Origin: Ktedonosporobacter sp.
GTDB taxonomy: Bacteria; Chloroflexota; Ktedonobacteria; Ktedonobacterales; Ktedonobacteraceae
Direction: 5' to 3'
DNA length: 64,000 nt
Assembly (NCBI GenBank): GCA_035293765.1
Contig: DATGMF010000079.1
Location: 1 to 64,000 of the forward strand
Below the pieces are notes generated by a model, which was not told the DNA's origin, made no database searches, and saw only the letters and a program-made list of their open reading frames with translations. Positions 15,562 through 21,018 of the stretch are shown here, one piece after another (the stretch's first letter is position 1; the number at the start of each line of letters is the position of its first letter). The translations under genes were made by a program, and so were the position numbers.

Positions 15562-16134
15562 TTACATTTCGTTGGTCAAGAGAATTGCTTCCGCAACTTC
15601 GCGCATGGATTTGCGGTTATTCATGCTGGCCTTCTGAATTTTACGGAAAGCCTCATTCTCCGAAAGCCCTTGCTTTTCCATGAGAAGTCCCTTCGCGCGC
15701 TCTACCACCTTGCGCGTCTCTAGCTGTTCGTTCAGGGTTCGGGCCTTCTCTTCAAGGGAGCGGAATTCGTTGTAGCGTGCTAACGCTACCTCGATAGCGG
15801 GAGCAACCTCGCTCTCGCGTAAGGGCTTCACGATGTAGTTCACTACGCCCGCTTCTTTGGCTCGTTCGACCAGAGGCTGATCTCCAAAAGCTGTGAGCAG
15901 CAACACCGGGGCGACTTTTTCCTGGGTGAGGGTCTCGGCGGCGCTAATGCCGTCTATGTCGGGCATGCGAATATCCATGATGATCAGGTCTGGTCGTAAT
16001 TCGCGAGCCAGATTGATGGCGCTTTGCCCGTCGCCCGCCTCCCCAACGACAAGGTAGCCCTGTCTGGTCAAGACGTCCTTTAAATCCATGCGCTGAATGG
16101 CTTCGTCATCTGCAATAATAATACGTGTTGGCAT
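15562..16134 (-). CDS. ANTAR-domain response regulator (receiver + RNA-binding antiterminator domain, AmiR/NasT type)
   Basis: Receiver RIIIADDEAIQRMDLKDVL...DLIIMDIRMPDIDGISA. ANTAR domain LEEKARTLNEQLETRKVVERAKGLLMEKQGLSENEAFRKIQKASMNNRKSMREVAEAIL. Start Met at 16134 with an upstream RBS; the track ORF is 5'-extended. Confidence 0.85.
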   Translation of the reverse strand: MPTRIIIADDEAIQRMDLKDVLTRQGYLVVGEAGDGQSAINLARELRPDLIIMDIRMPDIDGISAAETLTQEKVAPVLLLTAFGDQPLVERAKEAGVVNYIVKPLRESEVAPAIEVALARYNEFRSLEEKARTLNEQLETRKVVERAKGLLMEKQGLSENEAFRKIQKASMNNRKSMREVAEAILLTNEM

Positions 16135-16260
16135 AGGTTTCACCTCAAAGCCTCTCATCTCTATCCACCCGGGTAGTACTAAATTCTCTCCCTGTACAAA
16201 GAGTATAACATACTCCATCGGGTGAGTCGATAGGGTGAGCAAAAAACCTGATCCTCACGA

Positions 16261-17328
16261 TCAGGCTACGTACGTCAGATCCGGCTCGTCTCGCAGGGTT
16301 AGAGCCAGCCGGCGCGTTTCGCAGACGATTTTATGCAACTGCTCAGGTGTAATGGATTGGCGTCCATCGCATAGGGCGCGATCAGGCTCAAGATGGGTTT
16401 CGATAATCAATCCTTCAGCCCCCGCGGCAATGCTGGCGCGCGACATGGTGGGAACGAGCTCGCGGCGTCCGGTGGCATGGCTGGGATCGACGATAACGGG
16501 AAGATGGGTCAGTTCGTGAAGCAGTGGCACACAGGAAAGGTCGAGAACGTTGCGCGTCTGGGGATCGTAGCTGCGAATGCCGCGCTCGCACAGGATCACA
16601 TTGGGATTGCCTGCCGCGACGATGTATTCCGCAGCCAGCAGCCATTCGTCGATGGTCGAGGCCAGACCACGTTTGAGCAAGACCGGACGTTGCAAGCTGT
16701 TGTTGCCGGCGGCACGCAGGAGAGGGAAGTTTTGCATGTTGCGGCTGCCGATTTGCAAGATATCAGCATGGTGTGCGACCGTCTCCACCATCTCAGGTTC
16801 CATCACTTCGGTAATGACCGGCAGCCCCGTCATCTCACGCGCTTCCGCTAACAAATGAAGCCCTTCGATGCCGAGCCCCTGGAACTGGTAAGGGGAAGTG
16901 CGGGGTTTGAAGGCTCCTCCGCGTAATATGTGCGCTCCCGCTGCCTGGACAGCCCGGGCAATGGAGAAAAGCTGTTCTTTACTCTCAACCGCACATGGTC
17001 CCGCCATGATGACCGGGTGTTCGCCTCCGATGGTTACAGGTGTGCAATTATGCCCATCCCCCACAACAATGGCGGTATTTTCAGCCTGGAAGGCCCGATT
17101 TACTAGCTGATACGGGGTCTTGATGGAAACCAGACGTTCGACCGCGCTTTGCTGGCTAATCAGGGCCTGCGCCTGCACGTCGATCTTGCCGCTATCCAGC
17201 GCGATCACCTCGCGCGCGCCAATCTGTGTGGTCGTGATGGGGGACAGACTATCGGTGATACGACATAGGAGCGTAATGAGTTGCGCTCGTTCATCGTTGG
17301 TGGCCTGATTACGAATGGTGATAATCAT
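16261..17328 (-). CDS. 3-deoxy-7-phosphoheptulonate (DAHP) synthase, type I-beta with N-terminal ferredoxin-like regulatory domain
   Basis: Catalytic core [18 protein letters not shown]...[21 protein letters not shown]...[14 protein letters not shown]. The N-terminal ~85 aa align with the Thermotoga-type regulatory domain ([17 protein letters not shown].. vs MIVVLKPGSTEEDI..). Start at MIIT (17328) is preferred over the track start at 17346, which would overlap the RBS AAAGGA. Confidence 0.9.
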
Positions 17329-17382
17329 AACACTGGATCCTTTCACTCTTCTAAATTTGGGAAACCGGCTCTCCTGAATTTG

Positions 17383-17414
17383 GGAAACAAAAAAGCAGAG
17401 GTTTTTTCCTCTGC
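17383..17414 (-). terminator. canonical intrinsic terminator hairpin in the DAHP-synthase 5' leader (minus strand)
   Basis: Minus-strand RNA reads GCAGAGG-AAAAAA-CCUCUGC followed by UUUUUUGUUU, ~70 nt upstream of the start codon. Confidence 0.55.
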
Positions 17415-17705
17415 TGCTCCAGCACGCTGGTGGTTAGTTTTCGCTCAGCCCAAAAGGCCCACCATCATGCTGGAGGGCTAAACCAATAATAAAAACTATA
17501 TTGTTGGGCAATTGGCTTGCTGAGCATAAACTCCGTCCCTTCCGTTAGTAACGTAAGGATAGAACTGCATCTTCGACTCTATTATAGAGTATACGCAACG
17601 CACCGAAATATGTCAAGGGGTAGAGACGGGCGCGAAGCGGGCAGGGCAACCAGTAGCTCCCCGAGTTGTGGCTCCCCGCTTCATCGTGGGAGGAGTTGCC
17701 CCTAC

Positions 17706-18473
17706 CTAGCGTTTTTTCTCGCGGCGCTGGCTGGCTTTATATTCCTGATAGAGCTTGTCGCCTGATGTTACCGCCGGTGGGGCCTGTTCTCTGGCCTTGG
17801 TCCTGGGTTTGGCGGCAGGGGTCGGGGTGGGGGCGCCACTCATGCCGGTAAGGCTGCGGGGAATGAGGTCCAGCTTAGCCAGGATGACGAGAACGATCAC
17901 AAGCGTTGCCAGGAAGAGTAGCGTCGATACCTTAATAGGAATTGATGCGCCGAAAAGGTTGAGCGTCGTTAATAGGCGCTCCAGGCCCGCATTGGTCAGG
18001 AATGCCTGTTCCAGGCCGCCGAGGTAGCTTGCGCCGATCAGGTAAATAGCCATACCGAGAATATAGCGTGTTTTGAATGTGCCGGTTGGCCGCGCCGGTG
18101 TTCTGCTGGTGCTGGTTGCCGCACGCGTTGTTTTCGTCTCGGTTTTTTTTGCGCTGGCAGCTTTTTCAGGTTGTGTGACTTTCCCACGGGTCGCACGCGC
18201 CAGGCGGGCCTGCGCGACATCCACCTCTTTTGTTTTATTCTCCTGGTCATTCTTGCCAACCGTGGAGAAGAAGCCGGGCAGGCGGCGCGGCCTGGGCGCG
18301 GCTACAGGCTCAGCGGCTGAACTGGTTTCAGCTATGTCAACGGCGAGTTTTTCAGTATCGGGTGCTAACGTAGCGGTTTCTGGCCCCTCAGTCCGCTCTG
18401 TTACCAATTTGGGACGGGTGCGCTGGCTGCGAGCTCTGACTTTTTTACTGGTGCCGGGCTGTTCCAGACTCAT
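17706..18473 (-). CDS. hypothetical protein: Lys/Arg/Thr-rich N-terminal half, C-terminal membrane segment(s)
   Basis: 255-aa ORF with a highly basic low-complexity N-terminus and hydrophobic YILGMAIYLIGASYLGG / LLFLATLVIVLVILA helices. I recognise no known motif. Confidence 0.4.
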   Translation of the reverse strand: MSLEQPGTSKKVRARSQRTRPKLVTERTEGPETATLAPDTEKLAVDIAETSSAAEPVAAPRPRRLPGFFSTVGKNDQENKTKEVDVAQARLARATRGKVTQPEKAASAKKTETKTTRAATSTSRTPARPTGTFKTRYILGMAIYLIGASYLGGLEQAFLTNAGLERLLTTLNLFGASIPIKVSTLLFLATLVIVLVILAKLDLIPRSLTGMSGAPTPTPAAKPRTKAREQAPPAVTSGDKLYQEYKASQRREKKR

Positions 18474-19120: not shown

Positions 19121-20980
19121 CTAAAAGGACGGGTTAGCGTTTTGGACCAGCGTATCAAACCCGGCCTGGAACCAGGCACCAGAGACCGGAGCGTTAGCCA
19201 TAGCCCCCGTCGGCAGGTTGTTGTTCAGCGGATCGCCGCCAAACGTCGGGTCGCACATGCGGTCGAAGCCCTTGCCCGTGGGATTCTGAGGCCCCGTTGG
19301 AATCAGCGAGCTTGAGCCATCAGATTCGCCAGGCGGCTTGATCCAGACGAACGCGGCAATATTAGGCATCGGATTCGCTTGTGGGCGAGCCCCGATGCCA
19401 CCAGGCTGGTTGCACCAGTTGCCGCGGCCAATGCGCTTGTCGATCCTGGTGGCGTTAACGAATGTGTTCAGATCCGTTGAGGTGCTCGGTCCTGTCGGGC
19501 GAGCGGAGCCTCCCCAACCGTTACGCGACGTGTCGATTAACATGCCAATGGTGCTCGGGAAGCCGGCGGCGATAAACGCATTGCGCATATCGGTGTCATA
19601 GGTGGCCTCGTCGATGTAGGTGTTCCACTGGTAGAAGGTGGCGGAGCGCACCGGCTGACCGTTGATCTGCTGATTGGCGGTCATGAACGGCTCGGTCGTC
19701 GGCGTATAGTTGGCGGTGTTGCTGATGAAGCCATCCACACTATTGACGCCGGCGGTCGTGCCCTTGATCGTGTTGCTGATCAGGGTCACAGCGGGCTGGA
19801 AGTTGCTGGTCCAGCCGAGCCAGCCGTCGTGGGCAATATCGACGTAGTTGTATACGTTCGGGATCGCGTGCAGCTTGTTCAGTGCGTATTGGACGCCCTG
19901 CACGTAAGCGCCGCTGGAGTTTGCCTCAGCGCACTTGGCGATATTCAGGTTGGTGACCAGGTTGGGCAGCGAGTCCGGCTCGATGATCGCGACGATGCGC
20001 AAATTGCTATATTTCGGCAGACTGAACGTGGCCGCAATCGGGTCGATATACTGTGATTTGTAGATCGACAGACCGTTATTGGCGACAGTTAGCTCGCCGT
20101 TAGACGCCAGGGCTGCGCAATCGCGGTCAGGCAGGTCGTAGATGACGAAAGTGATCACGACGGGCTGGCTGCCGGTGGCCTGGGACAGTGCCGCATCCAG
20201 GTGCCCTGCCAGGCTTCTGGCGTAGCCCGGACCGCCGCTGATCGCGCCCATGCTGTCGAGCCAGACGGCTGTCGAGTACTGAGCGACTTTGGCCTCCTGC
20301 GTCCCGAGTGTGCCTCCTACCGAAGCTGCGCCCGCTTTAACGTTCGCGGCCCAATCAGGGTTGATGTATCCCTGAGCGCCAACGTAAGGATTGGCAACGT
20401 GCGTGCCAGGCGGTGGCGGCGGGGTAGGTGTAGGCGTATTCGTCGGCGTCTGGGTAGGCGTGGGTGTATTCGTCTGAGTCGGAGTTGGCGTATTCGTTGG
20501 CGGCGGTGGCGTGCCATTACAGGCATTACCATTGATGGTAAAGCTTGTAGGTGCGGTATTGCTACCACTCCAGTTGGCGTTAAAGCCAGGAGGAGAGGTC
20601 ACCGTCGCGCCCGCCGCAACGGCTCCATTATAGGACAGGCTGGTGATCGTCACCGCTGCGCCATTTTGCGTAAAGTTGCCATTCCACAACTGCGTGATCG
20701 TCTGGCCGTTGGGGAACGAGAACTGCAAGCTCCAGCTCGTCCATGCTGAGGCGCTGGTATTTTGAATGGTGAAACTTGCCCCGAAGCCAGTGTTCCACTG
20801 GTTTGTTACTGTGTAGGTCACCACACAGGATGAATCTGCATGCGTAGCCGTAGCCTCTATGAACAAGCTGCTGATGAGCAAAGTCAGCACGCTCGCGAGC
20901 AAGACCAGACTTCGTAGCTTGTTTTTAGCGAGCAAACCTGGAAGTCTACTCTGTGAGATGCGACGCTTGATATCGCGCAT
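19121..20980 (-). CDS. GH6 cellulase (cellobiohydrolase/endoglucanase) with N-terminal CBM2 and Pro/Thr linker
   Basis: N-terminal CBM2 ([23 protein letters not shown]...[18 protein letters not shown]). PT-linker TPTPTQTNTPTPT. GH6 catalytic signature VIYDLPDRDCAA. RBS aaaggaggg precedes the Met at 20980; the track ORF is 5'-extended. Confidence 0.9.
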   Translation of the reverse strand: MRDIKRRISQSRLPGLLAKNKLRSLVLLASVLTLLISSLFIEATATHADSSCVVTYTVTNQWNTGFGASFTIQNTSASAWTSWSLQFSFPNGQTITQLWNGNFTQNGAAVTITSLSYNGAVAAGATVTSPPGFNANWSGSNTAPTSFTINGNACNGTPPPPTNTPTPTQTNTPTPTQTPTNTPTPTPPPPPGTHVANPYVGAQGYINPDWAANVKAGAASVGGTLGTQEAKVAQYSTAVWLDSMGAISGGPGYARSLAGHLDAALSQATGSQPVVITFVIYDLPDRDCAALASNGELTVANNGLSIYKSQYIDPIAATFSLPKYSNLRIVAIIEPDSLPNLVTNLNIAKCAEANSSGAYVQGVQYALNKLHAIPNVYNYVDIAHDGWLGWTSNFQPAVTLISNTIKGTTAGVNSVDGFISNTANYTPTTEPFMTANQQINGQPVRSATFYQWNTYIDEATYDTDMRNAFIAAGFPSTIGMLIDTSRNGWGGSARPTGPSTSTDLNTFVNATRIDKRIGRGNWCNQPGGIGARPQANPMPNIAAFVWIKPPGESDGSSSLIPTGPQNPTGKGFDRMCDPTFGGDPLNNNLPTGAMANAPVSGAWFQAGFDTLVQNANPSF

Positions 20981-21018
20981 TCTACCCTCCTTTGGGTGCA
21001 ACTAAGAAAAACGATGCT

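Follow-up and report, generated by a model that had tools for sequence, protein, structure and literature searches.

The minus strand of a 64,000-nucleotide (nt) stretch of Ktedonosporobacter sp. DNA (contig DATGMF010000079.1 of assembly GCA_035293765.1; the whole stretch is hereafter called the window) contains an intergenic gap at 17329-17705 that precedes a DAHP synthase gene, aroF. The upstream open reading frame (ORF), which encodes 255 amino acids (aa) and has no Pfam match, has its stop codon at 17706, and the aroF ATG is at 17328, with a purine-rich GAAAGGA 10 nt 5' of it. The product of aroF (16261-17328) is a 355-aa type I-beta DAHP synthase with an N-terminal extra domain. An earlier reading of this DNA, hereafter the original prediction, described the gap as a 377-nt leader whose terminator would attenuate transcription of this first aromatic-pathway gene. 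The ORF boundaries and the Pfam match (DAHP_synth_1, E = 7e-79) bear out both the gene and the gap, and comparison with related loci upholds the proposal of attenuation. The element is very probably a ribosome-mediated leader-peptide transcription attenuator.

Architecture of the aroF leader

The gap contains a promoter of its own. The hexamers TTGACA (17616-17611) and TATACT (17593-17588), separated by a 17-nt spacer, match the consensus at 11 of 12 positions and form the best promoter-like site within 3.2 kb. Relatives, judged by eye, carry a TTGACA/TATAAT-like promoter at a similar place just 5' of the leader. Transcription is predicted to start near 17581. Because the promoter at 17616-17588 sits inside the gap, the leader RNA probably has a length of ~250 nt; the figure of 377 nt is correct for the gap itself. 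An 11-nt inverted repeat that is 91% complementary and lacks a U-tract (17634-17644 and 17672-17682) lies between the upstream stop codon and the leader promoter, and it may be the 3' end of the upstream transcript.

Downstream of the promoter is a leader ORF, MLSKPIAQQYSFYYWFSPPA, of 20 codons followed by UGA (17465-17527), with the purine-rich GGAAGGGACGGAG immediately 5' of its start codon. The putative regulatory codons form the run UUU UAU UAU UGG UUU (F12, Y13, Y14, W15, and F16; 17480-17494), and an extra Tyr codon, Y10, is found at 17500-17498. The frame is conserved in relatives. Among 31 distinct Ktedonobacteria leaders, the ATG-to-TGA distance is 60, 63, 66, 69, or 72 nt, a multiple of 3 in 31 of 31, and F, Y, and W swap at the aromatic positions to give FYYWF, FWYWF, YWYWF, or FYFWF. 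An equivalent ORF is present in more than 100 further loci. Limnocylindria and other Chloroflexota carry a short-ORF type of 11 codons and a stop, exemplified by MSHYFYFRCPA, MNAPYWFTPPA, and MSTFFFYRTPA, and xPA-UGA or SPPA-UGA is kept at the end of the leader ORF. The leader-peptide option, one of several named in the original prediction, fits this conserved, in-frame mini-ORF rich in aromatic codons.

Two smaller frames were also observed in these leaders. Short-ORF leaders (L014-L067 and L081-L200) end in GCAUGA, such that the stop codon overlaps an AUG (e.g., L026, 2749-2810). The +1 frame after GCAUGA is a mini-ORF of 5-7 codons (MNVSGR or MTDPGA before its stop) that ends in the inner-hairpin loop; in other leader types, the same stretch is read in frame 0 as an extended ORF (..PA-MLGQISM before its stop). 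The overlapping AUGA may serve termination-reinitiation, or it may be a mere frameshifted relic. In the window, a second small ORF, MQFYPYVTNGRDGVYAQQANCPTI (17496-17570, minus strand), begins ~11 nt past the predicted transcription start and encodes four aromatic residues. It was rejected as the leader peptide, as an equivalent is missing from all 13 close relatives examined, and it is probably a chance ORF.

The end of the leader ORF is embedded in a 17-bp helix. Its 5' arm (arm A, CUCCAGCAUGAUGGUGG, 17459-17475), which is 99.6% paired in the close alignment (A1), contains the final four sense codons and the UGA stop (17467-17465). Its covarying 3' arm (arm C, CCACCAGCGUGCUGGAG, 17417-17433) ends 1 nt before the terminator stem. 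Helix A:C begins 4 nt past the last aromatic codon. In an 85-hit alignment (A2), which was fitted to the covariance model described below and is hence biased towards structure, the helix is 98% paired, and compensatory changes occur in 8 of 9 outer pairs. Covariation scores 0.165, as compared to 0.070 for shuffled and at most 0.03 for slid partners. An independent gapless search gives 9-15 contiguous bp abutting the terminator versus 5-8 after shuffling. The helix occurs with 32 different 9-nt arms, and it covaries freely while the adjoining terminator stem hardly varies.

The spacings around the helix were measured in 122 leaders with an automatic choice of the helix base. The last aromatic codon lies 3-5 nt from the first helix pair in 114 of them, and 98 have the leader stop at positions +7 to +9 of the 5' arm; the ORF of the remaining leaders continues into the apical loop, with its stop 23-36 nt ahead of the terminator. 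The unpaired linker between the 3' arm and AGCAGAGG, the 5' arm of the terminator, is 0-3 nt in 94 of the 122. Where a class with a 5-nt linker (e.g., L026) was looked at, added basal pairs, UUUCG:CGAAG, close the gap.

The apical loop takes part in two further pairings. A small apical hairpin, P_s (GCC-UUUU-GGGCU, 17447-17458), shows compensatory changes in A1, and its segment can also pair with the terminator 5' arm in a duplex of -9.7 kcal/mol. Helix P_a joins AGUUUAUGCUCAGC (17519-17532), which spans the leader start codon, to GCUGAGCGAAAACU (17436-17449) inside the apical loop that caps the big helix; the energy of this duplex is -16.5 kcal/mol. The P_a pairing is conserved; in 31 sequences, its 8 core pairs are 100% paired and show 2 compensatory changes. 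P_a and the big helix together make up a pseudoknot or an alternative fold.

The perfect terminator of the original prediction is present as a G+C-rich 8-bp hairpin at 17415-17394. It is composed of AGCAGAGG (17415-17408), a loop of A6, and CCUCUGCU (17401-17394), and it is followed by UUUUUGUUU, i.e., U5-G-U3 (whole feature, 17385-17415; -12.7 kcal/mol). Its tail is the first of two copies of a 20-nt direct repeat that are 90% identical (17346-17388). Each copy contains the 12-mer GTTTCCCAAATT (17388-17377 and 17365-17354, 23 nt apart); the window holds only these two copies of the 12-mer, and two exceed the chance expectation (0 of 100 shuffles). The repeats had been described as 13 nt long. 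The count of two copies stands, but the exact length is 12 nt, and the first copy has a U where a G had been written. The second repeat copy occurs only in the window sequence when compared with the 13 closest relatives examined, and it is also absent from further Ktedonobacteria leaders read. Because the relatives read carry a single copy, we judge the repeat to be a local, window-specific duplication of the terminator tail without a conserved role.

A leader family in Chloroflexota

A genome search with the aroF protein yielded 80 loci. The best matches are from Ktedonobacteraceae, Dictyobacter, and Ktedonobacter racemifer (68-76% aa identity), and the upstream regions of close relatives align with the window from the promoter through the terminator. 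The leader ORF, helix, and terminator occur together in 35 of the 80 loci, which were located by the aroF protein alone; among them are Limnocylindria and other Chloroflexota in which aroF is only 54-59% identical to that of the window. A metagenome scan by terminator pattern, in which loops of 3-9 nt were allowed, yielded 120 additional loci, most of which have the leader ORF, helix, and terminator. A few of the metagenome matches are plain gene-end terminators without a leader ORF. The same layout is found at ~150 genome and metagenome loci, mostly before DAHP synthase genes.

The first downstream ORF is an aroF homologue in ~85 of the 120 metagenome loci. At further loci, it codes for prephenate dehydrogenase (tyrA), chorismate mutase type I, or type I-alpha DAHP synthase, and each of these genes has a separate aromatic-rich leader ORF ahead of it. 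Because the element stands before these three kinds of gene as well, it would define an aromatic amino-acid regulon. The possibility that the hairpin is simply the terminator of the upstream gene, which the original prediction had also considered, does not hold, given that a strong promoter lies between the two and that the leader travels with aroF, tyrA, or chorismate mutase regardless of the upstream gene.

The terminator stem core, GCAGAGG/CCUCUGC, and its U-tract are identical in 35 of the 80 genome loci, and the stem together with UUUUUUGUU is near-identical across Chloroflexota classes, before four different genes (35 genome and 120 metagenome loci). The loop is variable in sequence and length (5-9 nt in the examples read). 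In two Ktedonobacterales metagenome-assembled genomes (L012 and L013), the 3' end of a prephenate dehydrogenase gene seemingly lies, by eye, just 5' of the aroF leader. Prephenate dehydrogenase has its own leader copy (..AFAWYFYFSPPA before the stop) in L116, L122, L154, L170, L179, and L196. Since aroF and prephenate dehydrogenase each have a leader copy, the element appears to have been duplicated within genomes.

A covariance model was built from 31 Ktedonobacteria leaders. It recovers all other leader types with E values of 1e-15 to 1e-2, gives a marginal match (E = 0.14) on one Chloroflexota leader with a variant terminator, and detects a single true copy in the window. The model has no match in four tested aromatic-leader loci from other phyla (L046, L047, L051, and L052). 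At gathering thresholds, Rfam 15 has no match in the whole window and matches only tRNAs in 10 related loci, and a cmscan of 17200-17850 up to E = 10 gives only two spurious weak matches. The T-box (RF00230) and riboswitch options raised in the original prediction have no Rfam match in the window or the 10 related loci and were set aside. Taken as a verdict on attenuation, the empty Infernal scan would be a false negative, the family being absent from Rfam. A description of leader-peptide attenuation in Chloroflexota was not found in the literature searched.

On the 3' side of aroF, the window continues with a gene for an ANTAR-domain response regulator (15562-16242, minus strand), which follows aroF directly, and then with PSP1 and SPFH/Band-7 genes. 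Elsewhere in the window, 19121-21001 (minus strand) encodes a 626-aa, secreted-looking protein with a CBM2 cellulose-binding domain, a Pro/Thr linker, and a GH6 catalytic domain.

Proposed mechanism and competing explanations

Leader-peptide attenuation is proposed because an apparently translated aromatic mini-ORF precedes an intrinsic terminator and recurs before four aromatic-pathway genes. The ORF is conserved, its codons are those of the pathway end products, and the intrinsic terminator lies between the ORF and the gene. The same parts could belong to an independent small-RNA or small-protein gene that always terminates, with aroF transcribed from its own promoter. The unit does have a strong promoter and a strong terminator, and a role in trans is described for released attenuator RNAs of other bacteria, such as rnTrpL. 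However, a scan of the interval between the terminator and aroF gave no promoter-like site, the distance is short (57 nt from the U-tract to aroF), and no conserved motif was seen there in the relatives read. Moreover, the unit precedes four different aromatic-pathway genes, and the amino acids that abound in the peptide are exactly those that the pathway yields as end products. An independent gene is therefore highly improbable.

As a leader-peptide attenuator, the element would tune DAHP synthase to the charging of tRNA-Phe, tRNA-Tyr, and tRNA-Trp. Together with the mechanism that follows, this is on balance the best explanation, and we hold it with modest confidence. When an aromatic aminoacyl-tRNA is scarce, the ribosome would stall with an aromatic codon in its A site. 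Helix A:C would then start ~10-12 nt downstream of the first P-site nucleotide; at this distance, a structure meets the mRNA entrance without being unwound, and the helix would stay folded. If the helix survives stalling, it must be the structure that prevents termination. Because the partner of arm A is the segment just before the terminator arm and not that arm itself, we infer that the helix acts by steric exclusion. A terminator hairpin has its base far inside the RNA exit channel of the polymerase and so requires a few single-stranded nucleotides 5' of that base. With only 0-3 free nt ahead of the terminator 5' arm, the hairpin base would be kept out of the channel unless several G-C-rich pairs of the helix open; opening four of them in the window costs 10.4 kcal/mol, versus -12.7 kcal/mol for the terminator. 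Further bulk would come from the stalled ribosome, docked against the base of the helix; the polymerase would then fail to terminate and would read on into aroF. With charged tRNAs, the ribosome would instead proceed, unwind the 5' arm, and sit at the UGA inside it. The 3' arm would then be a flexible single strand, the terminator would fold, and a leader RNA of ~195 nt would be released. The probable function of P_a, given its pairing between the start-codon region and the apical loop, is either to restrict translation to a single early ribosome or to keep the leader silent after its release. The abutting-helix step is advanced tentatively, and we place it somewhat short of probable.

A conventional competitor for the terminator 5' arm was searched for in several ways: by ribosome-masked folding with and without the terminator 3' arm, by RNAalifold on truncated alignments, and by computing the best duplexes of the 5' arm with the codon and apical regions against shuffled controls. 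The masked folding, RNAalifold, and duplex searches gave no general competitor. Family-wide, the codon region pairs with the terminator 5' arm at -6.16 kcal/mol, versus -6.42 kcal/mol when shuffled, and the apical region at -5.98 versus -6.13 kcal/mol. Two other candidates were rejected. A local hairpin that would trap the freed 3' arm leaves 0.51 of the arm nucleotides paired, versus 0.60 in shuffles. For pairing of the 3' arm with the terminator, inspection by eye gave no more than 4-5 weak pairs, and such pairing cannot be general, given that covariation is seen in the arm but not in the terminator.

Several points weigh against the mechanism proposed above. No antiterminator that shares nucleotides with the terminator stem was found; the helix abuts the stem (0-3 nt) and does not overlap it, and we know of no characterized attenuator that works without shared nucleotides. 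Nearest-neighbour folding lets helix A:C and the terminator coexist. Ribosome-masked folding favours the terminator at every modelled ribosome position, with an average probability of at least 0.87, and the probability falls to 0.45 only in one ribosome-free relative (L017). The exclusion step leans on a steric argument, and the whole case on sequence comparison. The ribosome helicase boundary, as placed by helicase and frameshift-spacer studies, is at about +11 from the first P-site nucleotide, and the spacing statistics hinge on the automatic choice of the helix base. The model also leaves the near-invariance of the terminator stem unexplained, and no pairing partner or factor that accounts for it was found. 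A possible, though rather doubtful, elaboration is antitermination without base-pair competition, in which the helix bridges the terminator 5' arm, ~55 nt downstream, to the leading edge of the stalled ribosome and the terminator has a second, sequence-specific role. That role could lie with a trans-acting factor or with the leader RNA acting in trans after its release; the CCUCU arm of this RNA resembles an anti-Shine-Dalgarno sequence.

The pairing potential of the apical region could instead point to a classical relay, in which helix A:C would be the anti-antiterminator. A stalled ribosome would melt the 5' arm and free the 3' arm as a tether, and the apical CCUUUGGGCU, possibly stacked on P_a as a pseudoknot, would pair with the terminator arm AGC-AGAGG as the antiterminator. 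The original prediction had likewise paired a segment containing GGUGGGCC with the terminator 5' arm. The adjacent GCCUUUUGGGCUGA can indeed pair with CAGCAGAGG of that arm at -9.7 kcal/mol, but GGUGG itself pairs with CCACCA inside the big helix, and an antiterminator of this kind is weak and not general. Its best case lies in the Ktedonobacteria group, where 8 of 11 genome loci share the position of the apical-terminator pairing, at -8.2 kcal/mol or better, with -9.7 kcal/mol in the window, and the apical segment performs ~2 kcal/mol better than shuffled apical sequence. P_a could also stack on the pairing. Across the family, however, the pairing is no better than in the shuffled controls given above, and comparable pairing was not found by eye in tyrA-type and short-ORF leaders. 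It is never the minimum-energy fold under ribosome masks. Because the aromatic codons lie 3-5 nt before the helix, a stalled ribosome would open at most 1-3 of the 10-17 pairs. We therefore consider a classical relay unlikely.

Pairing of the codon region bears on another explanation, translation-triggered termination. Here, in ribosome-free RNA, the helix would be lengthened at its base as the aromatic codons, CUUCUACUUU, pair with GAAGCAGAGG, thereby hiding the terminator arm, and any ribosome on the leader would break the pairing. The signal would be ribosome dwell at Pro-Ala-UGA; free aromatic amino acids, and not hungry codons, would be sensed in a TnaC-like manner, possibly through the nascent peptide. 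Complementarity to the linker and the terminator arm extends over 9 of 10 positions of C-UUC-UAC-UUU in the short-ORF type. Most ribosome-free models of this type have the terminator arm 0.61-0.86 paired (at least 0.67 in 5 of 9), although two have it at 0.18-0.29, and it is usually far less paired with a ribosome on the aromatic codons. Codon pairing would partly account for the invariance of the terminator, and the kept ORF ending, xPA-UGA or SPPA-UGA, would suit an arrest site. The pairing is nevertheless absent from the group to which the window belongs (-1.8 kcal/mol in the window), and overall it does not surpass its shuffled control. The free exchange of F, Y, and W suits hungry-codon sensing and not a specific arrest peptide, the stop shifts by 20-30 nt in the extended-ORF types, and the Pro-Ala-UGA nucleotides are also under helix constraint. 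A stalled ribosome would, moreover, cover the codon pairing. These data make translation-triggered termination improbable.

A near-invariant terminator stem beside a covarying helix also fits recognition by a conserved factor, and protein-mediated attenuation would invoke an RNA-binding protein on the invariant hairpin or on the repeats, either TRAP-like or the ANTAR regulator encoded beside aroF. The ANTAR gene lies 3' of aroF in all Ktedonobacteria loci that are long enough, as the immediate neighbour in all but L009, and its product is 79-94% identical across Ktedonobacteria, i.e., better conserved than aroF (L001-L011 and many metagenome loci). No ANTAR gene beside aroF was found outside the Ktedonobacteria loci, however, and the variable terminator loop is by eye unlike the usual ANTAR dual-hexaloop target. 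TRAP-like binding, suggested in the original prediction, has little to bind, as there are only two repeat copies and the second is missing from the relatives examined. A protein would also leave the conserved aromatic ORF unexplained. We regard protein-mediated attenuation as quite improbable, somewhat below translation-triggered termination, and retain the leader-peptide attenuator as the preferred explanation.

Relation to known attenuators and significance

By analogy, the closest known system is the aroR-aroF attenuator of Corynebacterium glutamicum. In that organism, as relayed in secondary accounts of the work, the AroR peptide (Phe-Tyr-Phe) attenuates aroF, and stalling at these codons raises transcription of the operon (Neshat et al. 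2014 via PMC11802643, PMC4046766). In both systems, a short aromatic leader peptide precedes a DAHP synthase gene, and the short-ORF Chloroflexota leaders share the F-Y-F core, as in MSHYFYFRCPA. The likeness is to the Phe-Tyr-Phe description and not to the sequence, and the two belong to different phyla. The window peptide, with F-Y-Y-W-F, covers all three aromatic amino acids, and the Chloroflexota element differs further in that it serves several genes and has a near-invariant terminator.

The element shares with the trp and pheA attenuators of Escherichia coli (pairings 1:2, 2:3, and 3:4; RF00513) a leader ORF with regulatory codons, a stop codon at which a terminating ribosome would cover the 5' strand of the antiterminator, and an intrinsic terminator. 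Unlike them, it has no 1:2 protector hairpin that holds the regulatory codons, and its helix that would survive stalling shares no nucleotides with the terminator stem. It also matches no Rfam leader family (Trp, His, Leu, Thr, and others). The window stop codon lies ~70 nt 5' of the terminator U-tract, and the corresponding distance in the E. coli trp leader is similar.

Unrelated aromatic-rich leader ORFs were also observed before aroF in Bryobacteraceae, Phycisphaerae, Rokubacteria, Methylomirabilota, and a delta-proteobacterium (L046, L047, L050-L052, L056, L061, L068, L070, and L073), most of them with a clear terminator behind them; among these ORFs are MRYTFASFRFWF.., MKADTRFFFGYFWF.., and ..GFYGYWFYTYF... 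The Bryobacteraceae leaders likewise place an aromatic mini-ORF and a terminator before aroF, and their antiterminator 5' strand starts at the leader stop codon. Arm A was read as an antiterminator arm because it sits at the leader stop codon in the same manner. The sequences are unrelated, however, and in Bryobacteraceae the antiterminator, GAGUGGCGUUGG, pairs directly with the terminator arm, CCAACCCACUC, in a classical overlap.

A ribosome less than ~27 nt from a terminator represses that terminator in E. coli (PMC4824070). Such pyrBI-type, stop-proximal repression resembles the final step proposed here, in that a nearby ribosome prevents the terminator from folding in the polymerase. In the published case, the ribosome is close along the RNA chain, whereas here the proximity would come from a helix that loops out ~40 nt. 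Papers from 2010 and 2013 describe attenuators of this kind as essentially proteobacterial and actinobacterial, with the first Firmicutes case in 2010 (PMC2965389, PMC3766115).

The leader-peptide attenuator as a kind, even for DAHP synthase, is already known; a helix that abuts rather than overlaps the terminator is a deviation from the textbook scheme. Should a conventional overlapping antiterminator have been overlooked, the family would simply be another classical attenuator. As it stands, the fixed succession of aromatic codons, 3-5 nt, helix, 0-3 nt, and terminator, together with the lack of an overlapping antiterminator, raises the question of whether sterics alone can block an intrinsic terminator. 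The comparison adds a large family of cis-regulatory RNAs, with ~150 instances and as yet no Rfam model, to Chloroflexota. It would also supply an annotation rule for the aromatic regulon, comprising aroF, tyrA, chorismate mutase, and type I-alpha DAHP synthase genes, in Ktedonobacteria, Limnocylindria, and their relatives.

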